DNA of 64,000 bases from positions 3,488,001 through 3,552,000 of the forward strand of contig CM000151.3 in assembly GCA_000004695.1 (NCBI GenBank), in the 5' to 3' direction. The notes under the pieces were generated by a model. The model had not been told where the DNA came from and did not search any database. It was given only the letters and a program-made list of their open reading frames with translations. Source of the stretch: Dictyostelium discoideum. Its lineage: Eukaryota. Numbering within the stretch: the first letter of the stretch is position 1; each line of letters begins with the position of its first letter. Below are positions 22,436 through 44,959 of the stretch, piece by piece. Position numbers and translations under genes: made by a program.

Positions 22436-25400
22436 TTAAATTGGAAGAGGGTTCGGAGCTGCTGGGGTTTGCCAGGCTTTGTTGAATTTGTATTTGTGAA
22501 GATCTTGATTGGTGTTTTTTAGTATTGCTTCGTCGTGTTTGATTTTCTTTAGTGTGATGAATTTTTCAGTTTCGATGAGATTTAGTAATTCTGTTTCTAT
22601 GACCTTTTGCTCGAATTTTGGCTCTGGTTTGCTTTCATCAGTGTTGAACAATTTGTGACAGATTATCTTCCATAATTGGTGTGCTATTATTCCTATGAGA
22701 TTGGGGAAGATTCTCTCAGTTCTGTTGTATTTTGATATGTCTAAGGTATCCATTGACCATCTTTGGATTTTGATGAATGATAATTTGTTAACTGTTGATA
22801 TGATGGTTTTTTCAATATCTAGGATATCTTGGCATAGAGTGAAGAGGTGAGAATAAGGGTCTCTGAATAGGTGGCCACAGATCTTGCATCTGGTGTCTCT
22901 TTCGTGGTTGATACCTGGAAGTGATCTTGAGAAGAATCTGAAGAGGGTGTTTCTACCTTTTTGGTGAGAAATGCTGTTGATGTTTATGAATACTTTGGGT
23001 ATTGCTGTGTTGTATCTCACCGCCCATAACTTCTGCCATTCTGTTCTTCTTGGTGTTGGGTGTCTGTCTTTGATCATGAGTTCGTAAATTTCTTTCAGTT
23101 TTAGTGGTTCATCATTGTCGTTTCTTATACAGTCTGGAAGTTCATTTATCTTTGGATGGTTTTGGTAAAATTTGACTCTGAATACACCCCAGTGTCTGCA
23201 CATATCGTTGAGGGTTGAAGTGTGGGCTTTTTTCTACTTAATTGCTCCATGTACCATTCTTGTAAGGTATTGTTGTTGTTGTTGTAGTTGTTATGGAGTA
23301 GCCTGTTCATGTACCAGATTTTGAATGCTATATGTCTTAGTTCTATATCCCATAATTTTATGCCTCCTTCTTTCCAATCTGCATATGCTCTGTCTATTTT
23401 CATCATAGTTTTGTATTTTCTCTCTTCTGTATATGTATTCTTAACTGAGGAGAATAAGAACCATCTGGTCATGTTATTGATTTCCTCAATTTGTTCTTCA
23501 TTTAGATTATCCATGTATTGATGGTATGTTAATTTGGATAGAACGTATGTTTTGAGAATTGTCATCTTTGCCTTCATCGTTATTGCTTGTGATTTCCATT
23601 TGATTAGATTGTTTTTCATTTCTTGGATTAAAGTGTTGTATTTTGAATTTAAACCTGTTTTGGTGAAATTGAGGCCAAGATATCTTTCTGGGACTGTACT
23701 CTCTTGGAATGGTAGATCGTGTGGTTTATCTCCTATTGCTATCATTACTGTTTTCTCTTTGTTTAACGATGATGACGTTGCTGAGCAGTACTTTTGGATT
23801 TTAGTATTAATTTTCATTAGTTCTTCTGTGGAGTTTGTAAAGGTTGCTATGTCGTCAGCAAATGCAGTGAGTTTTAATGATTTGGAATTTGGTAGAGTGA
23901 AGCCTTTGATTGTATTATCATTGATGATATCTATTAGAAGTGGTTCTAAAACTAGAGCAAAGATTGTTGGTGATATTGGGTCTCCTTGTTTTGTTCCTGT
24001 TCTGATTGTTATTCCATTGACTAAAAAGTCGTTGATCTTTATTTTGTTTTTAGTATCTTTGAGTAGGTTTAGTAGGATCGCTGTGAATTTTGGGGGGATA
24101 CCAATATGCTCTAATGTTCTTGTGATACTCTTGTGGCTGATTGAATCGAATGCTTTGTTAAAATCGTAAAAGGTAATGAGTGTATTGTTCTTTCTTTTGT
24201 TACTTATTTCTATTACTTCCTTCATGATCTGAATATTGTCTTGGATGAACCTGTTTGGAACAAAGCCGTTTTGAAATTTGTTGATAATTTTACTGGTGAT
24301 ATCTAATAATCTACTGTTGAGAATTTTGCTTAAAATTTTGTAATCTGTATTGAGAAGGGTGATTGGTCTTCTATTTGAAATGTTTAGTTCATCTCCTTTT
24401 TTGAATATTGTTGTTATTACTCCTTCTTTGAATTTTGTGGGGATTTCTTTCTTATTTGTGAGGAGGTCGTTGAAAGCTATAGTCAATATTCTTGCTATTG
24501 AGTTGATGTGGTACTTGTAGAATAGTGCATTGATACCGTCTAAACCTGGAGATTTGTGGATACTTGAAGTTTTGATTGCTTTGGTCACTTCATGTATTCT
24601 TATCGGTCTGTCTATCTCGAGTTTCTTGATTAAATCAACGTCTACTTCCCATTTTTCTAATAACTTCTTGTGGGTTTCTTCGTTATCTTCTTTCTCTTCA
24701 TATTGATCTTGATAGAATTCAACAAATCTTTTTGCTATGTTCTCTTTATCTGATATGGTCTTATTATCTTTATCTTTTATTTGGAATATTGATTTATCTT
24801 TGGCTCTGGATTTAAGGATACTTGTGAGGTATTTGCTTGGTGTTTCTTGATGCAGGTGGAGTTTTAATTTTATATCCCATGCTTTTACCTTTCTTTCTTC
24901 TTCTAATATTCTACTTATTTCTTCATTGAGTTCTTTTCTCATCTTTGGAATGATATCACTATTTCCAAGTAATTTGTGGATTACGTATTTTCTTTTGTTC
25001 TTTTCTTTCTTTATTTTGTTTTGTTCTTTTTTTAAATAATCTCTGATGACATTATTTTTAAATTTCGTCCATTCCTCCACTGATTTGATCTTATCTTTGT
25101 TCTTACTGATTAATTCTGATAACCCATCATGTATATGTTTGTTGTTGAGAATTTCTTTACATAATGTCCAAGGGAGTCTTTCTAGTTTGGTTGTTGTTGT
25201 TGTTGTTGTTGTTTCTCTGTTGGTTTGTATTGTGATTGTGATGGGAAAGTGATCTGATTTGTTGAATACTGTGTTGTGGACTACCAGTTTTGAATTTTGG
25301 TTTAGTAGTGTTGGATGACAGTAGATTCTATCTAGTCTCTTCATTGATCTTGGAAATGTTGGAGTGTTTTCTTCAATACCAGTATCTAGTAGCATGTCTT

Positions 25401-25881
25401 GGTCTATTATTTTACGTAATTCAGTACCGAAGAAGCTGTTGCAATCGTGGTTGTTATTGAAGTCGCCTGCTATTATTTGATGGTTGATTGAATTATATTT
25501 TTTAAACAGTGATTTTGAGTTGATTATGAAGGTGTTTCTTTCAGATATAGTCGCTGGAGCATTGATCAATAATATGTTGATAGAATTAAAGGAATTGTAT
25601 TTAATTGATAGTATTCTACCATCATCGTCTTTGAAGTTTATTGATATGTGGCCTTTTCTTGTATCTCTATTTTCTATTGCTATGCCAGTTCCTTTACCTG
25701 AACCATGATCTATTCTTTCAAAGTTGAACATTGTTTTGTGGTGGTTGAATCCATTGAAATTAGTTTCAGTTAGGAGTGTTAATTGAGTGCCAATTCTTTT
25801 TATCGTTTCTTCTGTTTTATTCTTAGCGTTGGTTGATTGATTACCTCTGCAGTTCCATAGTAATAATTTTAATTGTTCCAT
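22436..25881 (-). CDS. TRE3-like ORF2: apurinic-type endonuclease + reverse transcriptase + C-terminal CCHC-like domain. It is split by an apparent frameshift at 23146-23203 into a 911-aa ORF and a 255-aa ORF.
   Basis: RT motifs FYDFNKAFDSISHKSI, QGDPISPTIFALVLEPL, AFADDIATF. C-terminal CKICGHLFRDPYSHLFTLC. The endonuclease N-terminus starts LLLWNCRGN. Confidence 0.7.
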
Positions 25882-25950
25882 TATTTTCTAATACTACTGG
25901 CAATTGGAAACTTGGTACCATTGCTTGTAGTAATTTTATTGATAGGTTTT

Positions 25951-25985
<35 letters not shown>

Positions 25986-26762
25986 TTTGTTTAGGTTGTT
26001 GATTGTTGTATTGCTTGTTGGTAATTGATGTGTGATTGTTGTTGGTGTGGTTGTTGTTTGTGTGGTTGTTATTGGTGTGGTTGTTATTGGTGTGGTTGTT
26101 GATGCATTAGTTGTTGGTGGAGTTGATGGTATTGGTTTAGTTGTATTTGTAGTTGTTGGTTGTTGATTTTTATTACTTGTGTTTTTTTTTTTTCTAACAT
26201 CTCTTATTTCTTTATTGTTATATTCAGAGATGAAGGCTCTTATTGGATGCTTACTACCTTTTATAGCATCAATGTTTGTTTTAATGATTGAGATATCATC
26301 TTCTTTGTTAAATAATAGAATGCATGAATATCTAATCACATCTGGTAGCATTACTATGTTGCATTCATCTATTAGTAATGGCTCCAATCCCCAGTTTTCT
26401 TTTACCATTTGATTGTTTATTTTTTTTATTATGTTTTTTGTAAATGTGTAAAAGTGGACATAGTGATATCCTGGGGTGTAAAGTATGAATTTTTGCAGTG
26501 GGAAATCTTCATACTTGAAAGTGCTGTAACACTCGTGTAATAATGTGAATTTTTCTTTTAGTATTCTACCAAATACTGTTATACCTTTTTGTCTTCTGAC
26601 AATGTTAAGAGTACCATTAACTATGAAATTATCTATTAATTTTGTTGAATTACTATTTAATTCCAAGGTATGTGGGTAGAATAACCTTATTTGAATAGTT
26701 TTTTTATTTAACTCTTCTTCGCCTAAGTTGAGTTCACCTTTAAGTTTATCGAAAAAATTCAT
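25881..26762 (-). CDS. TRE3-like ORF1 (293 aa) with a Thr/Pro-rich C-terminus
   Basis: First ORF of the element. Its stop overlaps the ORF2 ATG (TAATG). Confidence 0.6.
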
Positions 26763-27060
26763 TTTTTTTTTTTTTTTTTTTTTTTTAGATTATTTTTATT
26801 ATTTTTTTTTTTTAATTATGTGTTTATATAAAAATATTTTTGATTTTTATTTTTATTTTTTTTTTTCTTTATCGTTTATTCAGATCTATTCTTATTCCCA
26901 ATCCAAGGATTGAAGGAATTAGTGTGTAGAGTAGATAGATTGAATGTAGTTGATGTTAGATTGATGGATATGTTTTTCTGTATCTAGTATCCGTTTGATC
27001 AACTGTAGGCTTTTAATTTTTTTAAAATTAAATCAATATGGAATTTAATTCTTTAAAATA

Positions 27061-27071
27061 GGAATCGAACT
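27061..27071 (-). promoter_or_regulatory. External B box (ex-B box, GGTTCGAnTCC-like) about 30 bp downstream of tRNAi-Met copy A
   Basis: Minus-strand AGTTCGATTCC. A downstream ex-B box is typical of Dictyostelium tRNA genes. Confidence 0.55.
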
Positions 27072-27100
27072 AGCGACATATTCTGTATAATTTTAAAATT

Positions 27101-27172
27101 TAGCTTCTCTAGGTTTCGATCCTAGGACCTCGAGGTTATGGGCCTCGCACTCTACCCCTGAGTTAAGAAGCT
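27101..27172 (-). tRNA. Initiator tRNA-Met (anticodon CAU), copy A
   Basis: A1:U72, C33 in the loop CCCAUAA, T-loop GGATCGAAACC and discriminator A. Near-identical to the human tRNAi-Met core (GGCCCATAACC...GAGGTC...GGATCGAAACC...GCTA). Confidence 0.85.
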
Positions 27173-27492
27173 GTCGATTCAAGCTAACGAATCTTATGAT
27201 TTTTCTGTAATAAAGTTACTCTATAAAATTAATAGATATTAAATATGCATATTACATTACTAATTATAGTTGACACACATTTAAATAATATAATAATAAT
27301 AATAATAATACTGTCAACTCATTATAAATAATATAAATACTAAAGAATAATTTTATAAACAATATTGAATATTATAAATATAAACTAATATTAAATAAAG
27401 ATAACAAAGTATTATTCAATTATATAATTATTAATTATATATTTATAAAGCTAACAAGCTTTATTACATTTCATATCAAATAACTAAATGTT

Positions 27493-29954: not shown

Positions 29955-30202
29955 TTGGGGGGTGTAGAGTGTGTTTAGTGACGTAATATATTTGTTGAGG
30001 TTTGATGGTAGTGCTACTGTGTGTAGTGGTGAGTTCCAGTGTTTGCTAAATCTTTCGAGTTGTAGGGAGATGATGTTTTTGAATTTTTTTGTTTGTTCGT
30101 TGTTGGTTGCTTTTTTTTCTTGTCTGATTAGTTTGTATATGTTGTTTTTTGTTTTTCCCAGGCTGCTGTTATTTAATAGAAATTGGAATACGACGTTCAT
30201 TA
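29794..30202 (-). mobile_element. 5'-truncated TRE5-like 3' fragment. Layout: ORF2 end, A-tract (29904-29951), diverged C-module copy (29805-29903), A-tract.
   Basis: ORF end ...ERFSKHWNSPLHTVALPSNL. The module copy GAATGGAATAACGCAATT... is about 80% identical to the 36352-36457 and 27519-27620 copies. The 5' end abuts the boundary of inverted-repeat arm B at 30203. Confidence 0.55.
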
Positions 30203-30625
30203 CACAAATGTAATAAAGCTTGTTAGCTTTATAAATATATATAATTAATAATTATATAATTGAATAATACTTTGTTATCTTTATTTAATATTAGTTTATA
30301 TTTAATATTCAATATTGTTTATAAAATTATTCTTTAGTATTTATATTATTTATAATGAGTTGACAGTATTATTATTATTATTATTATTATATTATTTAAA
30401 TGTGTGTCAACTAAAATTAGTAATGTAATATGCATATTTAATATGTATTAATTTTATAGAGTAACTTTATTACAACAAAATCATAAGATTCGTTAGCTTG
30501 AATCGACAGCTTCTTAACTCAGGGGTAGAGTGCGAGGCCCATAACCTCGAGGTCCTAGGATCGAAACCTAGAGAAGCTAAATTTTAAAATTATATAGAAT
30601 ATGTCGCTAGTTCGATTCCTATTTC
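30203..30625. repeat. Inverted-repeat arm B, partner of 27056-27477
   Basis: See arm A. Confidence 0.8.
30508..30579 (+). tRNA. Initiator tRNA-Met (CAU), copy B
   Basis: Identical to copy A in reverse complement. Confidence 0.85.
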
Positions 30626-30659
30626 ATTTATTCAGAATCGAACTAGCGAGAACTTATAA
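30610..30659 (+). promoter_or_regulatory. Pair of inverted ex-B boxes (CTAGTTCGATTCC ... GAATCGAACTAG), 31 and 66 bp downstream of tRNAi-Met copy B
   Basis: A perfect 12-bp inverted repeat separated by 16 bp. Arm A retains only the first box, because the TRE3-like element begins after it. Confidence 0.5.
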
Positions 30660-30889
30660 TTATCCAAACGGTTTTAAGAATTTATTGAAATTAATTTTTA
30701 TTATTCATGAACATGGTTTAATAACATTGATCAAAAAAAAAAAAAAAAAAAACCAATAATATTAATACAATATTTTACAATTAAAATTTTTAATTTGATT
30801 ATTTAAATTGAAAAAAGAATAATAAATTTAAATTTTAAAATTCAAAAATATTAAAAAAAAATTGATATTTTAGATAAACTAATTAATCA

Positions 30890-30928
<39 letters not shown>

Positions 30929-31163
30929 ATTTTAATCAACTGTATTAAAATATTTTTAATTTTTTAATATAAAATTAAAAAAATATAATTTTCTTTAGTT
31001 AGATTCCTCAATAATAATTATAGCTTTTAAAAAGATAAATAAAAAAAGAAATATATAAATTAAAAGACTAAACATAAAAATTAAATTATAAAAAAGAAAA
31101 TATTTTATTAAATAATTATTAAATTATAAAAATAAAATCCAAACAAAAAAAAAAAAATTGATT

Positions 31164-31196
<33 letters not shown>

Positions 31197-31294
31197 TTAA
31201 ACCCCAAAAAGTAAAAAGATTTTTTTTTTTTTTTTGTTTTCTTTTAAAAGTTTGAGATTATTTTAAAATTGGGAAATTTCACTTGCCCCCAATA

Positions 31295-31326
<32 letters not shown>

Positions 31327-31559
31327 TTAGTTTTTAAAAAATCAAATCTTTGCAAAAATAAATTTAAACAATGATTACTTTTTTGTCAATTTACAAAAAA
31401 AATTAAAAATAATTAAATTTAAAAAATAAAAAAAAAAAAAAAAAAAACCAATTAAAAAAAGAAAAAGTATAAAAAGAAAAAAAATTTTTAATTAAAATCA
31501 TTAAATTGAAAAATTAAAATTTCATACAAATTATCTTTTTAAATAATAAAATTTATAAA

Positions 31560-32321
31560 ATGTCTACCCAAGGTTTAGTTCAACTTATCTCAAATGCTCA
31601 ATGTCATTTAAGAACCTCAACCAATTACAATGATGTCCACACTCAATTTAATGCTGTTTTAAACTATAAAAACAAAGGTACCAATACTATTGATGGTTCA
31701 GAAGCTTGGTGTTCATCAATCGTAGATACCAACCAATACATTGTTGCTGGTTGTGAAGTTCCACGTACTTTTATGTGTGTTGCTCTCCAAGGTCGTGGTG
31801 ATCATGATCAATGGGTTACATCATACAAAATCCGTTATTCATTAGATAATGTTACCTGGTCTGAATATCGTAATGGTGCTGCTATTACTGGTGTAACTGA
31901 TCGTAACACTGTTGTTAATCATTTCTTTGATACTCCAATTAGAGCTCGTTCAATTGCTATCCACCCATTAACCTGGAATAACCACATTTCATTAAGATGT
32001 GAATTCTACACTCAACCAGTACAAAGCTCAGTCACTCAAGTTGGTGCAGATATTTACACTGGCGATAACTGTGCCTTAAATACCGGTTCAGGTAAACGTG
32101 AAGTTGTTGTCCCAGTTAAATTCCAATTTGAATTTGCTACTCTCCCAAAGGTTGCCCTCAACTTTGATCAAATCGATTGTACTGATGCTACCAATCAAAC
32201 TCGTATTGGTGTTCAACCAAGAAACATTACCACCAAAGGTTTCGATTGTGTTTTCTACACTTGGAATGCTAACAAAGTCTATTCATTAAGAGCTGATTAC
32301 ATTGCTACTGCTTTAGAATAA
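31560..32321 (+). CDS. dscC: Discoidin I chain (N-terminal discoidin/F5-8 type C domain plus C-terminal H-type lectin domain), first gene of a tandem pair. The symbol is tentative, based on the literature statement that two discoidin I genes are closely linked.
   Basis: A 253-aa [27 protein letters not shown]...[10 protein letters not shown]. Recognised as discoidin I from memory. Confidence 0.9.
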
Positions 32322-32666
32322 ATTTTTAATCTTATTATTAAAATTGTAATTTAATTTTTAATCAAATTTAATAAAAAAAAAAAAAAAAAATCCAAATTCA
32401 AGATTTTGTTTATTATATTTTTTCCATTTCTAAACTATTATTATTAAATTTGAAATAAAAAATGATAAAAAAAAAAAAAAAAAAACTGTATTTTTATAAT
32501 ATCCAATCTAAATTAATTATCGTCAATCTTTAAGGAATAAAAACTTTTTTTTTCATTGAAAAAACAATAAAAAAAAAATAAAAAAAATCAATAAAAAAAA
32601 AAAAATCATAAAAAAAAAAAAGATATAATTATTTTCAATCATAAAAATTCCAAATTTACAAATTTA

Positions 32667-32704
<38 letters not shown>

Positions 32705-33044
32705 TTTAATAATCAAACCATTACAAAAAAAATTTACAATCATTTTAATTTTATTTTTTTTTTCACACCAATTGCGACAGCTAGGAAAAATCTGAAAAGT
32801 GGGGTGATTTTTATTAAATTTTAAAAAATTTATACCCATTAATTTTTTCAATAAAAATAGTTGGTCATTTTACAAAATTAAAAAATTAAAAAAAAAATAA
32901 ATTAAATCTTTAATTTTAATTGGAAAAAAAAAAAAAAAAAAACTATAAAAAGAAAATATGATTTTCATTTTAAAATCATTAAACTGAAAAATTAAAATTT
33001 CATTTATACAAATTATCTTTTTTTAAATTCAACACACAATTAAA

Positions 33045-33806
33045 ATGTCTACCCAAGGTTTAGTTACACTTCTCGGAAATGCTCAATGTCATTTAAGAAC
33101 CTCAACCAATTACAATGGTGTCCACACTCAATTTAATGCTGCTTTAAACTATAAAAACAAAGGTACCAATACTATTGATGGTTCAGAAGCTTGGTGTTCA
33201 TCAATCGTAGATACTAACCAATACATTGTTGCTGGTTGTGAAGTTCCACGTACTTTTATGTGTGTTGCTCTCCAAGGTCGTGGTGATCATGATCAATGGG
33301 TTACATCATACAAAATCCGTTATTCATTAGATAATGTTACCTGGTCTGAATATCGTAATGGTGCTGCTATTACTGGTGTAACTGATCGTAACACTGTTGT
33401 TAATCATTTCTTTGATACTCCAATTAGAGCTCGTTCAATTGCTATCCACCCATTAACCTGGAATAACCACATTTCATTAAGATGTGAATTCTACACTCAA
33501 CCAGTACAAAGCTCAGTCACTCAAGTTGGTGCAGATATTTACACTGGCGATAACTGTGCCTTAAATACCGGTTCAGGTAAACGTGAAGTTGTTGTCCCAG
33601 TTAAATTCCAATTTGAATTTGCTACTCTCCCAAAGGTTGCCCTCAACTTTGATCAAATCGATTGTACTGATGCTACCAATCAAACTCGTATTGGTGTTCA
33701 ACCAAGAAACATTACCACCAAAGGTTTTGATTGTGTTTTCTACACTTGGAATGAAAACAAAGTCTATTCATTAAGAGCTGATTACATTGCCACCGCTTTA
33801 GAATAA
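33045..33806 (+). CDS. dscD: Discoidin I chain, second tandem gene, about 97% amino-acid identity to the first. Symbol tentative.
   Basis: A 253-aa [43 protein letters not shown].... It differs from the upstream copy at a handful of residues (Q8T, I10L, S11G, D25G, V33A, A238E). Confidence 0.9.
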
Positions 33807-33924
33807 ACAAATAATTTTTTAAAAAATTATTAAAATTGTAATTTAATTATTAATCAATTTTAAAAAAAAATAAAAACAAATAAAATTTAATTTTATTTTT
33901 TTTTATTATAAAACAAAAAGCTTT

Positions 33925-33981
<57 letters not shown>

Positions 33982-36313
33982 GTTAAACATATTTATATTA
34001 ATCAAAAATAATTATCTTTTTTTATTTTATTTTTTGATCAATAGACCAGATTATATAATTATTCTAACAGTATTCAAAAAAAATAAAAAAAAAAAACATG
34101 ATACACCCATAAAAACTAATGTCATAAATTTTTTTTTTTTTTTTTTTAAGGTGAATTATAATATTTATTTTTTCCATAAATTTTTTATTTACAGCAATAA
34201 ATAATTAAAATTAATTTTCGTTTTTTCATTTTTTTTCATTTTCCATTTTATTTTTTTTTTTAATTCCCAAACACTTTTTTTAATTTTTTCAATTTTTTTT
34301 TTTTTAATTCTCTTAACCAAATATCTATATATTTTAAATTTTTTTTTTAAATTCAAATAAATAAATAAATTAAAATGTTTTCAAAAGGAATCAATATAAT
34401 GGGTCACTCTTAAAATAAAAAAAATAAAACAATAATGATAAAAAAAAAATAAAAATATTAGTGTAATAGGAAATTTATGGACTCAGAAAAACAATATATT
34501 TATTTTTGAAATTGTACCCTCTACAAAGAAAAAAAAAAAAATAATCACACAGAAATAAAATAATTATTTTTTTAATTTATTTTTTTCTTTTTTTTTTTCA
34601 AAACTAATTTTTATATGAAATAAAAAAATAAAAGTAAAAAAAAATAAAAAAAAAGGCAACGAACATACACCAGCACCTCATAAAATTACTTTTCACCACT
34701 GAAATTTTTACATCCCTTACTAATTTTTAATTTCATTTTTTTATTTATTTTTTTCTTTTTTTTTTTTTTTCTTTTTTTTTTTTACTTTTTTTTTTGGTTA
34801 ATAAAAAAATAAATAAATAAATAAACAAATAAAAAAATAAATAAATTTTTTGAGTTAATCTATAAAGCAGGTTTAGCAAATGGAGTTTGGTTTTTAATAT
34901 TTTTAGGGGTATCATTGTTGGTAATTTAGGTACAGCGGCAATAATTGATATAGCAGGTTTAGCAAATGAAGTTTTATTTTTAGGTGATCATTATCGATAT
35001 TGGGATTTGCAACATTGGGTAAACCAGCAAAAGTTAATGGTAAAGGACAAATAGCAGAGAATCAAACTAAGTATTAATATGAACCATCATCAGGAGATAG
35101 GAACAAGATGATACAACAACAACAACAACAACAGGTAAAAGAAAAACTAAAGATACAGACAATAGTTCAAATAAAAAAAGAGTGTAAGTTTTATATTTAA
35201 AGATAGACCAATTCGATTACTGGTGACCATTACTTTATAGTGGTATAAGTCAATCATTCTTTTTTTGGTGTATTCCCTCAATTACTTAGTAAAGAATGGA
35301 TTGGTAAAGCTGTGGCTTTTTTTACGATGCTTCTGTTAGTAATTTCGGAGCTTCACCTGGTAAAGGTAAACAAGCTGCAAAGAATTAGAAAAGATTAAAT
35401 ATTTAGAAATGACATGACGTTAAGCTATTAAAGTTACAAAAATGTAAATAATCATAATAAATTAATAAATCAATAAATCAATAAATTAAAAAATAAATTA
35501 ATTAATAAATAAATAAATAAATAAATAATTAAATAATTTTTAAAAAGTACTCTAATTTTGGAATTATTTGTTTTTTTCTTTTTCTTTTTTTGCTCTAAAA
35601 CTTTTTTTTTTCTTATTTTCATATACACTACTTTTATTTTATTTATTAATTTTGTGCAAATAAAATTAACATAAGAAAATACTCGACACACGAGAAATTT
35701 ATTTTATATTATAATTTTTAATATTATGATTATTTTCATTCTTGAAACTTCTTTAAGTGCTTCACGACAAGCCATATCTGAACATTTAACCATCAAATCA
35801 TTCTATGCAGTTTGATTACCTTCATCAAGTGAAGCACCTAAATAACCACTTCAATAAAAACTATTTTATGTATGTTTTGGACACTTAAGAAAAACTACAG
35901 AGTTTATTTTTCAATTTATCACTATACTGCTCAAATTAACTTAATAAATGACTATATTTTTTAGAAAAAAAAAGTAAAAAATAAAGAAATTCATGACTTA
36001 ATAAAGTAAACAGTGAATCAAAAATGTAAACCGAAGTTATTTGAGGCCATGGTGGATCAGTTGAGACGGCTAATGTGTTTATACCTGAACATGTACATGT
36101 AGTATTGTTCTTCTGTTTATAGAGTTTGGAGTTGGTGATTATATGTACACATTATTATTAAAGAATGAAATTCTTGATTTATACCAATCACTAGATAATT
36201 CAGCATTAACACCAAATATAATACAAGGTCATAGAAAATATTTTGAATAATTGATTTTAAAAGCAAAAAAATTATAAGCATCACATGATAAATTATAAAC
36301 ATTACATGATAAA

Positions 36314-36802
36314 TTTTAAACATATGCACAGTTTTTTTTTTTTTTTTTTTTGAATTGGATAACGCAATTATTATTTGCTTCTCCTTGAGATGCTAGATCT
36401 CATTTTATTTTATTTTTTTTTTTTTTTACAGGGTCTCTAAAAGAGGGGTTGGTTTACTTTTTTTTTTTTTTTTTTTTTTTGTTTCGAATTTTGAATTGTA
36501 TTATTACTTTTGATTAAAACATCTTTTTTGTCCAAACTTTTTTCTAAATCTTTTTTTATTTTATCGTCTGGTTCGTGATTGATGTTTATGACGTATTTGA
36601 ATTGTTTTTTTTTTAATTGAGTTTTATCCACAATTTCGCTTATTTTTTGTAGGCATTTGTGTTGCTTAATATTTGTGGTGTTGTTTGTGATTTTCATTTT
36701 ATTTTCTTTCTATTTTTTTTATTTTTCTTTAAAAAGTTAAAAATCTGGAAATTTTCTGATTAACTTGGGTTCCAGGTTTTTTTTTTTTAAACATATGCAC
36801 AG
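36314..36802 (-). mobile_element. 5'-truncated TRE5-like insertion (ORF2 end, A-tract, C-module 36352-36457, A-tract) flanked by an 18-bp TSD TTTTAAACATATGCACAG (36314-36331 and 36785-36802). Its 5' end lies about 50 bp upstream of tRNA-Leu.
   Basis: The ORF end ...DLEKSLDKKDVLIKSNNTIQNSKQ is homologous to 46330-46420. Divergent orientation and roughly 48 bp distance from the tRNA are the classic TRE5 pattern. Confidence 0.7.
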
Positions 36803-36834
36803 GAGTTTGGTGAAAAAATTTTAAACATATGCAC

Positions 36835-36913
36835 GGGAGATTGGTCGAGTGGTTAAGACAATAGATTTAGGCTCTATCCTCCGGGGTCGCGGGTTCGAAC
36901 CCCGCATCTCTCA
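36835..36913 (+). tRNA. tRNA-Leu (anticodon UAG), type II with a long variable arm
   Basis: GGGAGAT acceptor (one G-U pair), D-arm GTCGAGTGGTTAAGAC, anticodon stem-loop ATAGA-TTTAGGC-TCTAT, variable arm CCTCCGGGGTCG and T-arm GCGGGTTCGAACCCCGC. Confidence 0.8.
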
Positions 36914-37440
36914 CATTCTTTTTATCCATTTAAATATCTAGATTTCCCTGAAATTTACCTAATAAGGTTAAATAAAATTAAAAAAAGAATGAGGTCAACC
37001 ACATTAAATTGGTAGGAATTTATTTGAGTTTTTACTATTTACGAATAACATTTATTTATTTGATCTATAATTTCATTTTTTTATATATTAACATTATATT
37101 ATTAAGGTTTTTAAAATTTTATTTATTTTTTTTTTTTTTTTATTTTTTTTTTTTTTTTTGAAACTCACACATAATATTGCATGCAGAAATACAAATTTAA
37201 AAAAAATCCGAATTAACACCTATTATTACTAAAATATCTACATCTAGATCAAGTAAATAATTAATTAATATCAAATAAATAATAATAATAAAAATCATAC
37301 ACATTATATGTGCTCATTTTTGAGTAGCTAATCTAAAGAATCTGGTTAAACTTTATATTGTGTGATACTACTGTATGTTAGTATTAGTTGTGCATGTCCT
37401 TGCATCCACTTTACACTGAATGAATAGTAATCAATGTGGT

Positions 37441-37629
37441 TGGGTCAACTGACATAATTTGCGATATTTGCATGGGAGGTTGGTCAGCTGACATTATTAA
37501 CATTGTTCGCAAGGGAGGTTGGTCAGCTGACATTATTAACATTGTTCGCAAGGGGTAGTTTAGCTGACATTATTAACAATATTGGCATGGGAGGATTGTC
37601 AACTGTCATTATTAACAATATTCACAAGG
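37441..37629. repeat. Minisatellite, about 4.5 tandem copies of a 40-41-bp unit (GGGAGGTTGGTCAGCTGACATTATTAACATTGTTCGCAAG)
   Basis: Direct tandem repeats read in the sequence. It lies immediately upstream of the discoidin pseudogene fragment. Confidence 0.7.
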
Positions 37630-37631
37630 TC

Positions 37632-37770
37632 ATGGTGCTGCTATTACTGGTGTAACTGATCGTATCACTGTTGTTAATCATTTCTTTGATACCCCTATTG
37701 ATGCTCGTTCAATTGCTATCCACTCATTAACCTGGAATAACCACGTTTCATTAAGATGTGATATCTATAG
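37632..37770 (+). pseudogene. Discoidin I pseudogene fragment (about 135 bp of the discoidin-domain coding region, no start or stop)
   Basis: [43 protein letters not shown] matches discoidin residues 106-148 with several substitutions. It is about 90% identical at the DNA level to 31876-32010. Confidence 0.75.
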
Positions 37771-38452
37771 ATTATATAAATTATTATTAATTATTCAAGG
37801 GTCACACATCGTTTATTGATATATCCAAAATAATATAAGTATTCCATAAAGTTAGAATACGAGATTCATTACAATTTGTAAGGTATGCAGTAGTTCTTTG
37901 TTACAATAATTATTTATATTATTAAATTCATTTTCATTTATTATATTTATTCATTTACATTTTTCATTTGTAAATTAGTTTATTTTGTATATTCTTTATA
38001 AAGTTATTATTTTGAGTTTAATGTGCTGACGCTCCAACATAACAAATAAATCTTAATATATCGATATTAAATAAAAAAAAAATAAAAATAATAACTACAA
38101 GCAATAAAATTCATTTTGCCTTAAATTACTTCTTTCCTAGCTTAGCCCTCCCAAATAGTTTATTCGTGATACACAAATTACCTTTTTAAATCATCAAATT
38201 GTTCAATTTTATTTTGTAAATTAACCTTTTTCCATAATCAATCTCAATTGAAGATGGATTACCTCTAAACCAATGTTAATATATATATTATATAGTTTAC
38301 ATTAATAATAAAAATAAATTTATATATAAATATATCATATTAAATATAAAAAAAAAAGAAAATATTAATAATAAAAATTAAATTAAATATTTAATATATA
38401 ATATATTTTAAATTTATACTTTAAGTAAAAATATAAAACCAAACAACAAATT

Positions 38453-38495
<43 letters not shown>

Positions 38496-38532
38496 CATTA
38501 ATTATTACATTTATTGTATAATTTTATTTATT

Positions 38533-40833
<2,301 letters not shown>

Positions 40834-42327: not shown

Positions 42328-43219
42328 AACCAAACAAACAATAATTAATTTTTTTAAATAACTTTTTTTAGAAATAGGTTGTTTTATGTATATGTGGATT
42401 TTTTTATTTTTTTAATAAATATTTGTTTGGTTATTAGTTTATTTAGTATGAATCGGTACTAATCCAATTGCCAGAGAATCAAAGGATTTTATTCTTTTTT
42501 AAGATATATCTTTTCATTCTCGGGCATTGTTGAAAGGTAGATTGTATATTAAACAGCTGTTTCACTAAATAATATATTTCTTAATTAAATTTTTAAAAAA
42601 AAAACTTTTTTATAAATCATTAAACACAGAATAAAATATGGGAATTATTTAATTTTCAATCAAGGTAAATAATTAAAATACTTTTTATTCTAATAATTAT
42701 AATAATAATAAAAATAATTAGTTTTACTAATATTAATTAATATTATGGGTTGGTTGGTATAAAACTAAAATTAAAAAATCAAAGTTTAAAGAACTATATT
42801 TTTATGAAATCAGTGTTTCTGATTGTGTTGGATGATCCCAAACAAAATCCCAAACAAAATCAAAATAAAACAAATAAAACAAATAAAAACAAATAAAAAC
42901 AAATATAAACAAAAACATAAACAAAATAAAATAAAATAAAATAAATAATTAAACAAAAAAGAAAAAAGAAAAAACAAAAAAATAAAAAACCAAAAACAAA
43001 AAACAAAAAAAAAAAAAAAAACAAAAACAAAATAAATAATCCAAAATTTAATTAAATTTTTAAAGTTTAATTGTTTTGAAATTTCACAACGTTATCAATT
43101 AGAAATAATACTTTTATGGGAATTGGATTTTTTATTATTTTTAAAATTTTGAAAACTAATTATTTTTATTATTATTATTACTTTTTTTTTTATTTATTTA
43201 TTTTTTAATTATTATTTAT

Positions 43220-43990
43220 TTAATTTTGATTTAATTTAATTTCTCTTTTAAAAACTTTTAATTTTTCATTTTGATAAGAATTTTTTGAAAAAATATAAGT
43301 ATTTTTAATGAAATCAAAACTTTTAATATGTTGATATTCATTAATTAAACGATTTAAATCCAATAAATATTTATCAAAATCACAAGTACTATTAATTGCA
43401 CCTGTTTCAAAATGTGTAATCGTTTTATTACCACTCAAGAGTATTTCTTCAATCACTTGAGTAGTTGTTGAACTCCACATTAAAAATGTTGAAATTGATT
43501 TATTTGATGAAATTAATGAACCAATCTCTTTATTAAATGAAGTTGGAGTTTTTTTATTTTTTGGGAATTTTAAAATTCCACCTCTAACTCGGCACCAATG
43601 ATTAAATGTAACTTTTTTCATTGTTTTGTTCTCTTTAAATAATTGTTTAAAAACTTGCCAGTTATTTGAAAAAGTTTTATTCTCTACTAATAAACCTAAA
43701 CTACCACCACTACCATCTAAAAAACTATCACAACTACATCCTAAACCCAATTCTCTTCTTTCAACATTATTTGATAATAAATAAATTAAATTATCATAAC
43801 AAAAATTAATTGAAAATAATTTTAAATTTCTAAATGTTTTAAATAATGAATTTAAATCACCCAATGAAAATGTTGAATATAAATTTTCAAAATGTGATAA
43901 ATTTGATAAATAATATTTTAAATTATCTTCTTTTTTTTCTTCTTCTTTTTCTTTTTCTTTTTCTTTTTCTTTTTGTTGTTGTTGTTGTTT

Positions 43991-44033
<43 letters not shown>

Positions 44034-44377
44034 ATTGAATAAGATAATAATTTAATTATTGGTATACCATCAATATCACTCTCACCATTAATAACTAAAA
44101 AATCTAAATTTTTTGACCAAATATCTAATGATTTAAATAAAACTTCTTTTGATGGACAATATTCAGTAGAAATTGATAATACTTTTTGAACTCTTTTTCC
44201 AAATTCTTCAATTGATTCAACGGTTTGAAATCTTTTAAAATTAATTTTATATAATTTTAAATTAATCATTGTACTATTACTTTGATAAAGAGAATTTATA
44301 ATATCTAAAATTTGACTATTTTTTAAATTAATGTTTCTAACTATAAATTTTTTAAATATTATATTTTCTTTATTATT

Positions 44378-44408
<31 letters not shown>

Positions 44409-44959
44409 AGTTGTTGTTGATAATTAACTAATTTTTCAATACCTTTATTTGCTAAATTAAAATCAAAACAAACTTTAATACCATCTTTTTTATTTTTATA
44501 ATAAAATAATTCATCTGTATGATCAAAATGTAATTTTAATGTTTTTACATTTTCTTTTTTTATAATTGAAAATTTTCCAATTCTTTCAATAAAATCTTTT
44601 GATTCTGATGTTTTTATTTTTGTTGTCATTATTTCGGTGGTAGTATTATTATTATTATTATTATTATTAAAATTTTTTTCAAAATCTAAATTATAATTAA
44701 AATCAATTGAAACTGTTAAATTATTTGATAATGTTTTAAACCAATCATGATTCACTAATGCCAATGAAATCATTAATTCTTTAATTAACTTTTCATTATC
44801 TCTATAATCAATATCTTCAATTTTAATGAAATCAATTAATTTATTATTTCTATCAATATGTTTACATAATATTTTAATTATATATTTTTGAATATATAAT
44901 GGTAATTTTATAATTTTATTATTATTATTACTATTATTGTTAATATTGTCGGTTATCAT
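43220..44959 (-). CDS. Hypothetical protein (579 aa), tandem paralog of 38533-40833
   Basis: Shares the N-terminal KLPLYIQKYIIKILCKHIDRNNKLIDFIKIEDIDYRDNEKLIKELM and C-terminal MKKVTFNHWCRVRGGILKFPKNKKTPTSFNKEIGSL blocks with the upstream gene. Confidence 0.6.

Follow-up and report, generated by a model that had tools for sequence, protein, structure and literature searches.

How did a short, dead piece of a discoidin I gene in Dictyostelium discoideum come to lie downstream of a tandem pair of such genes, beyond a tRNA gene and fused to a minisatellite? The locus that raises this question lies in a window of 64 kb, by which we mean the whole stretch of 64,000 nucleotides that was analyzed. 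The gene pair is a long-known textbook locus of Dictyostelium, and classical accounts of the discoidin I family include a truncated copy. In papers from 1981–84, Poole and Firtel reportedly described a third gene besides the two linked ones, together with a truncated fragment of a gene and with rearrangements in the neighborhood of Tdd repeats. We here combine the sequence features of the window with a comparison to nine related loci, and ask whether the fragment is what is left of a third member of the array or arrived by another route.

The discoidin I gene pair and its concerted evolution

Two intronless genes of 253 codons each lie in tandem on the forward strand, separated by a spacer of 723 bp, exactly as described in the first-pass annotation, which had left the chains to be assigned. 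Exact protein look-up made this assignment. The open reading frame at 31560–32321 is dscC, encoding discoidin I chains B/C (31560–32318 being identical to DIS1B_DICDI / XP_644559), and the one at 33045–33806 is dscD, encoding chain D (33045–33803 being identical to DIS1D_DICDI / XP_644560). Both are thus the functional genes of the D. discoideum discoidin I lectin family themselves (dscA, dscC, dscD; DIS1A, DIS1B, DIS1D; 2W94), without any difference and with the same two-domain architecture. The domains PF00754 and PF09458 were found on the cluster of discoidin homologs as well as on the called genes, and PDB entry 2W94 (discoidin-1 subunit A) was matched over its full length (E = 3e-168), with about 95% identity to the crystallized A chain. 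The factor V/VIII C domains and Helix agglutinin gave partial matches to the discoidin I proteins. Developmentally regulated expression and the binding of Gal/GalNAc are properties that we take to be established for these exact proteins. The third gene, dscA, is located about 35 kb downstream, just beyond the edge of the window; a recent preprint names the members of the family DscA, DscC and DscD.

The coding sequences of dscC and dscD differ at 13 of 762 nucleotides (98.3% identity) and their proteins at 6 of 253 residues (97.6% identity). Self-BLAST delimited two repeat units on the forward strand, one at 31415–32417 that includes about 145 bp of 5′ flank and about 96 bp of 3′ flank around dscC, and the other at 32874–33910 that includes dscD with short flanks. 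The units are 91.5% identical over 1040 bp, with flanks that are far more diverged than the coding sequences, and the repeat period from dscC to dscD is 1485 bp. The pair is thus a 1.5-kb tandem duplication, in which gene conversion has kept the coding regions nearly identical. The case for conversion is that all 13 differences fall outside nucleotides 172–683 and that paralogs within one genome (13–20 nucleotide differences) are closer to each other than orthologs across lineages (32–48 differences), despite the shared synteny of the tandem pair in four lineages. All three discoidin I genes show concerted evolution, and the dead fragment has escaped the conversion that homogenizes the functional copies.

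A dead discoidin fragment of the dscC/D type

A search with tblastn using the first of the two proteins as query yielded only one additional discoidin match in the window, at 37631–37768, covering residues 105–150 with 84.8% amino acid identity (E = 2.6e-21). The nucleotide match, between 37629–37767 and gene nucleotides 311–449, has an identity of 92.1% and an E-value of 1e-52, far beyond chance. We delimit the pseudogene fragment to 37629–37770 on the forward strand, a copy without indels of dscC/D nucleotides 311–452. It represents 139–142 bp of the 762-nt gene, and homology to the gene ends abruptly at both edges. The fragment had been described as 135 bp long and as spanning residues 106–148; it is real and mutated, as stated, but somewhat longer at both ends. 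Its distance from the dscD stop codon is 3.82 kb, in agreement with the earlier estimate of about 3.8 kb.

With its significant homology and truncation, the fragment bears the marks of a pseudogene. It is a dead, non-functional copy of part of a discoidin domain, because it has no ATG start codon, is preceded immediately upstream by in-frame stops and carries replacements in otherwise invariant columns. Its private substitutions number 10 in 139 nucleotides (7%), and the codon changes comprise seven non-synonymous against one to three synonymous ones. All seven replacements (N105H, N116I, R128D, P136S, I143V, E148D and F149I) are in columns that are invariant among 16 discoidin I proteins. The private divergence of 7% is at least as high as the neutral divergence estimated for each lineage (about 5%), and the fragment could therefore predate the split of the lineages compared here.

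The affinity of the fragment is to the linked genes. Over 139 nucleotides it differs from dscC/D at 11 sites and from dscA at 15, and the four diagnostic sites (nucleotides 325 and 421–423) all show the C/D state and none the dscA state. With the private changes set aside, it is one step from the AX4-type dscC/D, four steps from the gene in the related locus L003, five from dscA and from L004, and six from L009. We therefore reject dscA as the donor, and a local origin stands on the match at the four diagnostic sites. The first-pass annotation had proposed that a higher identity to an unlinked discoidin gene would point to a transposed fragment, and the comparison with dscA came out the other way. 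When polarized with outgroups, the C/D states that the fragment shares against dscA look ancestral, and for this reason the exclusion of a dscA source is weak.

The tRNA-Leu gene and the minisatellite built on its junction

Between the gene pair and the fragment is a gene for tRNA-Leu (anticodon TAG; UAG) at 36835–36914 on the forward strand, identified with ARAGORN and by Rfam (RF00005, 58 bits). The Rfam scan of positions 30000–39000 showed nothing besides two tRNAs, and a scan for promoters and terminators of the bacterial type showed nothing, the models being unsuited to this eukaryote. Directly 5′ of the gene for tRNA-Leu, at 36801–36834 on the same strand, is a 34-bp partial duplicate of its 5′ junction, consisting of AGGAGTTTGGTG, a filler and the leader AAACATATGCAC. 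Equivalents of this junction unit are present in L003 and L004. Partial duplications of tRNA 5′ ends recur in these data, at genes for tRNA-Leu as well as for tRNA-Met.

The minisatellite occupies 37438–37629 on the forward strand, and its right end abuts the start of the discoidin fragment exactly. That such an array adjoins the fragment on its upstream side had been noted before, with 4.5 copies of a 40-bp unit; the values from Tandem Repeats Finder are a period of 39 bp and 4.9 copies (80% matches, score 214). Each unit is composed of a 12-mer resembling the 5′ end of the tRNA-Leu gene (GGGAGGTTGGTC), a filler with the palindrome GTCAGCTGAC and a leader-like end. Both a 12-mer search and an alignment of the units indicated homology to the 5′ junction units of tRNA-Leu in the window, L003 and L004, and a search of about 250 kb for the unit core gave a single non-self match, namely the unit immediately upstream of tRNA-Leu in L004. 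Judging from this resemblance, the minisatellite units derive from the 5′ junction of tRNA-Leu. Apart from the related L004 unit, the minisatellite was not found elsewhere in the window or in the nine related loci. A metagenome-wide scan with a 21-mer of the unit hit two copies of one unrelated contig with 42% GC, which we dismiss as a chance match.

Retroelements near the tRNA genes

A retroelement was also expected between the genes and the fragment and is indeed present, in the form of a 5′-truncated TRE5-type non-LTR relic with an oligo(A) tail at 36332–36788 on the reverse strand. The tail appears as T20 on the forward strand (36332–36351), and the relic is enclosed by two 14-bp target-site duplications, AAACATATGCACAG, at 36318–36331 and 36789–36802. 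The proximal end is located 47 bp upstream of tRNA-Leu in the opposite orientation, with the T20 at the distal end. TRE5 elements insert about 44–54 bp upstream of a tRNA gene in the opposite orientation (PMC5911963), and the relic obeys this rule of distance and orientation, in addition to having the tail and the duplications. Furthermore, its distal (3′) module of 135 bp recurs upstream of both tRNA-Met genes and has several copies in L004. The assignment as TRE5-type is based on position, orientation, tail, target-site duplication and the recurring 3′ module. An 86-aa open reading frame inside the relic had no Pfam matches. Because the two target-site duplications are intact and match each other, the relic represents a simple insertion, neither a breakpoint of a deletion or recombination nor the agent of a deletion.

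Elements of the TRE3 group integrate downstream of tRNA genes, at a distance of 40–150 bp (PMC5911963). An element with APE and RT domains at 22436–26762 is located downstream of a tRNA-Met gene and co-oriented with it, as expected for TRE3, at a distance of 5 kb upstream of dscC. Protein homologs indicate that it is multi-copy in Dictyostelium, and no name for the element was given among these homologs. The TRE5 and TRE3 systems differ from the case at hand in that neither of the two elements in the window touches the discoidin fragment, and the TRE5 relic bears no trace of a rearrangement that it would have caused.

A block confined to AX4-type genomes

Alignments across the boundaries with L004 and L003 showed that the minisatellite and the fragment are parts of a 639-bp block at 37340–37978 on the forward strand, in which they are preceded by a segment N1 (37340–37437) and followed by a segment N2 (37771–37978). 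The block was found only in the window and in L001, that is, in AX4-type genomes, and the two copies are 100% identical. Short-word BLAST of N1 and N2 (about 300 bp in total) against the window and all related loci returned nothing above shuffled controls, and a search for further copies of any part of the block, through the 64-kb window and about 190 kb of sequence from related loci, was negative. The boundaries (37339/37340 and 37978/37979) are not marked by direct repeats, and neither terminal repeats nor target-site duplications of the block were found. The sequence after 37770 is not A-rich and has no poly(A) tract, and the region 37140–38050 has no similarity to the APE and RT element of the window. 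At the junctions of the fragment we saw no convincing microhomology or mechanistic signature, the one exception being a weak overlap (TGGT/GCTG) on the left side.

The discoidin fragment is absent from L003, L004, L006 and L009, and tblastn gave no third discoidin match in any of L003, L004, L006, L007, L008 and L009. L003, L004 and D. citrinum (L006) all have the conserved tRNA-Leu gene itself, which in the last of these follows a single dsc gene. The interval between tRNA-Leu and the next gene, a 766-aa one in the window, measures 1619 bp here and, in both L004 and L006, about 410 bp. The site of the block is occupied in L003 by about 750 bp of unrelated filler, in which a 138-aa open reading frame had no Pfam matches, and in L004 by 15 bp. 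On the other side of the tRNA, window positions 33957–36258 are shared with L003 and L009 and the TRE5 relic is shared with L004, while the gene-pair segment is inverted in L003. The instability that the first-pass annotation attributed to the region is thereby borne out, with a different insertion or deletion at the tRNA-Leu flank in each lineage examined. We infer that the block was inserted in the AX4 lineage rather than lost in parallel elsewhere. Nevertheless, L004 lacks the whole of 37340–38435, and since 37979–38435 is shared by the window and L003 but missing from L004, the latter may carry a deletion, and L003 may carry a replacement that removed an older block.

Origin of the fragment

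We favor the hypothesis, to which we assign a probability of roughly 0.55, that the fragment is a small patch, either templated or captured, in a tRNA flank that is prone to rearrangement, and not the remains of a third gene. A short patch would have been written or ligated into the 3′ flank of tRNA-Leu, be it as a templated insertion, as filler DNA, during break repair or by replication template switching. The discoidin piece is copied from the interior of the coding sequence of a dscC/D-type gene, and the minisatellite is an expanded array of the short duplication unit found at the 5′ junction of the same tRNA-Leu. Taken together, the junction homology and the C/D affinity place the sources of both identifiable pieces 0.6–6 kb upstream on the same strand. 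That homology stops abruptly at the edges of the fragment, and that nothing in the gene region resembles N1 or N2, speak for a patch rather than an eroded gene, and a repair or template-switch mechanism is the probable cause. Templated insertions, filler DNA and FoSTeS/MMBIR-type events resemble the block in being short patchworks of nearby same-strand pieces (here the tRNA-Leu junction at 0.6 kb and dscC/D at 4–6 kb), and also in their setting, a site with recurrent, independent indels beside a tRNA gene. The block differs from them in having no clear microhomology and in containing two pieces of no recognized source, and age has blurred its signature.

We also considered the possibility that a third discoidin I copy arose in a larger segmental duplication and was later deleted down to 140 bp, which we regard as unlikely. 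The fragment does have the strand, orientation and type of dscC/D, the region is prone to rearrangement, as seen from the inversion in L003 and the differing indels at the tRNA-Leu flank, and the private divergence of 7% permits an old origin. Like unprocessed pseudogene fragments at the edges of tandem arrays, it is dead and incomplete, lies close to its parents in their orientation and escapes conversion. Unlike them, it consists of an internal 140 bp only, has a conserved tRNA gene between itself and the array, and is fused to a minisatellite derived from a tRNA junction. It is located about 2.8 kb beyond the register of the 1485-bp period, past a tRNA-Leu that is conserved even in D. citrinum and past blocks that are kept in the relatives, and outside of the 139–142 bp there is no resemblance to the gene flanks or to other parts of the gene. 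Seven other genomes have neither a third copy nor a longer remnant. The joint between a tRNA-Leu-junction unit and dsc nucleotide 311 is of the kind expected from a tandem duplication that reaches from dsc to tRNA-Leu, but a simple duplication of this sort predicts the joint upstream of the intact tRNA, and we observe the opposite, with the intact tRNA-Leu to the left of the array and the fragment; we therefore reject it. Finally, at least two large events would be needed where one small event suffices. Off register, with no flank homology, no fuller orthologous copy in the relatives and a TRE5 relic whose intact target-site duplications speak against a deletion by that element, the fragment lends no support to the earlier proposal of a third tandem copy that was removed by element-associated rearrangement.

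Two routes that involve mobile elements appear more improbable still. During retrotransposition next to tRNA-Leu, a reverse transcriptase of the TRE3 or TRE5 type might have switched template to discoidin I mRNA, which is very abundant, and to the precursor of tRNA-Leu, thereby producing a chimeric cDNA patch. The fragment is an internal piece of the mRNA-coding region, an APE and RT element is present upstream of dscC, a TRE5 relic flanks the very same tRNA, and the site is in the downstream flank of a tRNA gene, which is where TRE3 elements integrate (PMC5911963). However, the start of the block is some 425 bp downstream of the tRNA, beyond the range of TRE3 (PMC5911963), it shows neither the poly(A) after the fragment nor the target-site duplication expected of a retrocopy, and it does not resemble the APE and RT element of the window. 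In addition, the minisatellite units hold only the 5′ leader and the first 12 nucleotides of the tRNA, unlike a copy of the mature tRNA. We attach just as little probability to the idea that fragment and minisatellite are cargo of an unrecognized mobile or composite repeat that carries a discoidin piece, such as the old “Tdd” repeats. N1 and N2 could belong to a mobile element, as they are of normal complexity and have no recognized source, and lineages either have the whole block or lack it; repeats around the linked discoidin I genes were reported in the 1980s. What counts against such cargo is that no part of the block has a second copy in the sequences searched, that its ends lack the repeats and duplications of a mobile element, and that the minisatellite units, being homologous to the tRNA-Leu junction next to them, point to a local origin.

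Implications for tRNA gene flanks in Dictyostelium

The locus is ordinary and of little importance beyond its annotation. The genome comparison makes some modest additions, namely the concerted evolution of the genes, a fragment left out of conversion and limited to AX4-type genomes, lineage-specific indels at the tRNA flank and a minisatellite built from a tRNA junction. More tentatively, and with clear doubt on our part, the block at 37340–37978 may preserve the trace of a local event at a tRNA gene, either template switching or break repair, in which an expanded array of junction units was joined to 141 bp copied from the nearby, highly expressed discoidin genes. A single locus is insufficient to carry the claim that tRNA genes are fragile sites. 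If the indels at tRNA flanks and the minisatellite derived from a junction were found to be general across the genome, they would bear on tRNA genes as fragile sites in a very AT-rich and compact genome. And if our interpretation of the block is true, then it would suggest, along with the independent indels of L003 and L004 at this spot and the recurrent duplications of 5′ ends of tRNA genes, that the tRNA genes of Dictyostelium are hotspots for the insertion of templated patches, independently of the TRE elements.

Discoidin I Genes and Their Concerted Evolution

The two discoidin I genes of the first-pass annotation are present, and exact-sequence look-up assigned their chains in Dictyostelium discoideum AX4: the ORF at 31560-32321 (plus strand, 253 codons) is "discoidin I, C chain and B chain" (DIS1B_DICDI, XP_644559), and that at 33045-33806 (plus strand, 253 codons) is "discoidin I, D chain" (DIS1D_DICDI, XP_644560). 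These genes, dscC and dscD, are separated by a 723-bp spacer and differ at 13 of 762 nucleotides and 6 of 253 residues. They form a classical, fully annotated and already known locus. Papers by Poole and Firtel from 1981-84 reportedly described a linked pair of discoidin I genes, together with a third gene and a truncated gene fragment, and are said to have noted rearrangements and Tdd repeats surrounding the linked pair.

The domains of the family are PF00754 (F5/8 type C, discoidin domain) and PF09458 (H-type lectin), and the structure of discoidin-1 subunit A (2W94) gave an end-to-end match (E=3e-168). A 2026 preprint lists DscA, DscC and DscD as discoidin I and DscE as discoidin II. The third gene, dscA, was placed by means of a second D. 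discoideum assembly, GCA_054883475.1 (loci L001 and L002), which is 99.5% identical to the window. It lies at L002 10001-10762, equivalent to about window position 68,360, on the same strand as dscD, ~35.2 kb downstream of it and ~4.4 kb past the window's right end; at this distance of about 35 kb, it is in fact linked, if loosely.

The duplicated unit (31415-32417 versus 32874-33910, 91.5% identity) reaches just ~145 bp upstream and ~96 bp downstream of the coding region, and its flanks are far more divergent than its coding sequence. All 13 differences fall within nt 22-171 or 684-750, leaving an identical core of 512 bp between them. For comparison, we used orthologous loci from divergent D. 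discoideum strains (L003, L009), D. cf. discoideum (L004), D. citrinum (L005, L006), D. dimigraforme (L007) and D. firmibasis (L008). The window, L003, L004 and L009 share the tandem pair in synteny; there, the two paralogues within one genome are 13-20 nt apart and orthologues 32-48 nt apart. Across the discoidin genes of the window and L002-L009, within-genome paralogues differ by 13-37 nt and between-lineage orthologues by 32-91 nt, and even dscA, 35 kb away, is nearer to the dscC/dscD genes of its own genome than to its D. citrinum orthologue. We conclude from these sequence distances that dscA, dscC and dscD evolve in concert through gene conversion. An independent head-to-head discoidin pair, its members differing by 2 nt, exists in D. 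dimigraforme, and the C/D locus of D. citrinum holds a single gene.

A Dead Discoidin Fragment

A tblastn search of the whole window with the dscC protein returned a single further match at 37631-37768 (residues 105-150, 84.8% identity, E=2.6e-21), and at the DNA level 37629-37767 aligns with nt 311-449 of both dscC and dscD (92.1%, E=1e-52). The fragment described in the first-pass annotation thus exists, with its length revised from 135 bp to 139-142 bp and its residues to 105-150. It has no indels and no start codon, and in-frame stops lie just upstream. Tabulated site by site against 14 discoidin I genes, the fragment has ten private substitutions (nt 313, 347, 378, 382-384, 406, 427, 444 and 445). 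They cause seven replacements (N105H, N116I, R128D, P136S, I143V, E148D and F149I), every one of which hits a column that is invariant across 16 aligned discoidin I proteins of six species; differences among functional genes across this stretch are almost all third-position. Judged by its sequence, the fragment is a dead, non-functional copy.

Four sites (325 and 421-423) distinguish dscA from dscC/dscD, and all of them are in the C/D state in the fragment. With the private changes excluded, it is 1 step from dscC/dscD of the window, 4 from L003, 5 from dscA and L004, and 6 from L009. The proposed local origin is thereby upheld: the alternative of a higher identity to an unlinked copy was checked, and the fragment is nearer to the linked dscC/dscD than to dscA. 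By outgroup comparison its C/D states are probably ancestral, and they argue only weakly against a dscA-like donor. Since gene conversion has left dscC and dscD identical across this stretch, the donor is not assignable to either one. The one remaining non-private difference is a C at nt 375, the ancestral state, where all three AX4-type genes have T, which implies that copying predates the T substitution and that the fragment has since been exempt from conversion.

A Lineage-Specific Block Downstream of tRNA-Leu

The fragment lies within a 639-bp block (37340-37978) composed of 98 bp of unmatched sequence (37340-37437), a minisatellite (37438-37629), the fragment and another ~210 bp of unmatched sequence (37771-37978). 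Neither unmatched segment had a match above shuffled controls in the window or any of the loci, and no third discoidin match of any length was found in the other genomes examined. Among the genomes compared, the block occurs only in the window and, 100% identical, in L001. Boundary alignments showed that D. cf. discoideum L004 aligns to the window through 37339 and resumes at 38436 with 15 bp between, and that strain L003 aligns from 37979 onward, with an unrelated filler of ~750 bp replacing 37010-37978. This filler (L003 3024-3778), in the tRNA-Leu downstream flank, is higher in GC and contains a 138-aa ORF without a Pfam match. Sequence 37979-38435 is common to the window and L003 and absent from L004, which suggests a deletion in L004. 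In D. citrinum, the distance from tRNA-Leu to the next gene is ~420 bp. The fragment's private divergence (7%) equals or exceeds the ~5% per-lineage neutral divergence estimated from synonymous and intergenic differences. The block may be an AX4-lineage insertion, or may have been lost twice elsewhere.

The minisatellite, first described as 4.5 copies of 40 bp, is confirmed as an array, with Tandem Repeats Finder giving a 39-bp unit in 4.9 copies (80% matches, score 214); its end is the fragment's first base. Full units start with GGGAGGTTGGTC, which differs at one position from the 5'-most 12 nt of tRNA-Leu, GGGAGATTGGTC. With up to two mismatches, this 12-mer occurs four times in the whole window (0.67 expected): at tRNA-Leu, in two minisatellite units and at one retroelement site. 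Within ~250 kb of window and loci, apart from self-matches, the 25-nt unit core matches only a 38-bp unit directly 5' of tRNA-Leu in L004, a partial tandem duplicate of the tRNA-Leu leader and 5' end, and a 34-bp version of it occupies the same position in the window and L003. The units align as tRNA nt 1-12, a short filler and a leader-like end (ATATGCAC, TTTGCAT or TTCGCAA). This shared architecture shows the minisatellite to be an expanded version of the tRNA-Leu 5' junction repeat, situated 0.6 kb downstream of tRNA-Leu. In the window around 27460 and 30217, and up to three times in L004 (5741-6013), the tRNA-Met 5' end is partly copied upstream of tRNA-Met genes. These copies parallel the tRNA-Leu junction duplicates, which hints at a recurrent process at the 5' ends of tRNA genes.

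Neighboring Elements and Rearrangements

As previously noted, a TRE5 insertion and tRNA-Leu lie between the genes and the fragment. Sequence 33957-36258 is common to the window, L003 and L009, and is followed by a retroposed TRE5-type relic (36332-36788, minus strand) with a distal T20 run. The proximal end of the relic is 47 bp upstream of tRNA-Leu(UAG) (36835-36914). By a published rule (PMC5911963), TRE5 elements carry an oligo(A) tail and are oriented opposite to the tRNA gene upstream of which they insert, at a distance of ~44-54 bp; the relic fits this rule by position, orientation and tail. A perfect 14-bp direct repeat, AAACATATGCACAG, flanks it (36318-36331 and 36789-36802), and such matching target-site duplications mark the relic as a simple insertion that was not the breakpoint of a deletion or recombination. 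Its 135-bp distal module also lies upstream of both window tRNA-Met genes and in several L004 copies, including the orthologous one. The tRNA-Leu gene follows the discoidin genes in L004 and, at a distance of 4 kb, the lone C/D-type gene in D. citrinum, and in L003 it lies inside an inverted block; by this distribution, the tRNA gene itself is old.

That inversion was seen in L003 1-16250 aligned with window 30477-40792: the block of tRNA-Met, dscC, dscD and 33957-36255 is inverted relative to that of the TRE5 relic, tRNA-Leu and a 766-aa gene, with one breakpoint close to a tRNA-Met gene and the other at the relic's poly(A) end. The alignment identifies it as a structural polymorphism of the discoidin pair. 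The 766-aa gene (38533-40833, minus strand) and a 579-aa gene (43220-44959, minus strand) are Asn/Gln-rich paralogs with 84% similar 3' ends (38445-38965 versus 43154-43671) and no informative Pfam match; in D. citrinum the pair is ordered differently relative to tRNA-Leu.

Upstream, an inverted duplication (27056-27471 versus 30206-30624, 97% over 421 bp) carries two head-to-head tRNA-Met(CAT) genes, ~1 kb upstream of dscC, and both copies are also in L009. The sequence ~4.8 kb upstream of dscC holds a near-full-length non-LTR retrotransposon (22436-26762, minus strand) that L009 lacks at the orthologous site. Its ORF1 has 293 aa; its ORF2, with domains for an APE endonuclease and a reverse transcriptase, is split by a frameshift (911 + 255 aa) and is 98% identical to a 1147-aa protein from a cluster of 55 sequences. 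Located downstream of and co-oriented with tRNA-Met (27101-27172, minus strand), the element is classed as TRE3-type by position. It may be the "Tdd-3" of older literature.

Origin of the Fragment

Taking its anatomy, decay, C/D affinity and lineage distribution as observed, we favor, with a probability of roughly 0.55, a small local patch at a fragile tRNA flank, the mechanism of which is inferred: a short segment would have been copied or ligated from nearby same-strand sequences, perhaps as patching during repair or replication. This reading is preferred because the predictions of a third copy, a simple tandem duplication and reverse transcriptase-mediated capture are not borne out. The first-pass annotation is confirmed in what it observed and partly supported in its interpretation: the local origin holds, but it took the fragment for the relic of a third tandem copy removed by element-associated rearrangement. 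An eroded copy should be in register or contiguous with the array, retain residual flanking homology and have a fuller counterpart in some relative, and we saw none of these; nor does the intervening TRE5 relic, with its intact target-site duplications, bear any sign of having mediated a deletion. We therefore consider a third copy unlikely.

Capture by reverse transcriptase seems more doubtful still: it should have left an A-tail, target-site duplications and TRE sequence alongside, all three of which are absent, and the block begins ~425 bp from tRNA-Leu, beyond the TRE3 window (PMC5911963). We give similarly little credence to transport as mobile-element cargo. A simple tandem duplication from discoidin nt 311 to the tRNA junction would yield the observed joint between repeat unit and discoidin sequence, but it is rejected since that joint is predicted upstream of the intact tRNA gene and is found downstream. 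Within this otherwise well-known locus, the mildly new elements are the tRNA-junction origin of the minisatellite and a lineage-specific, indel-prone site.
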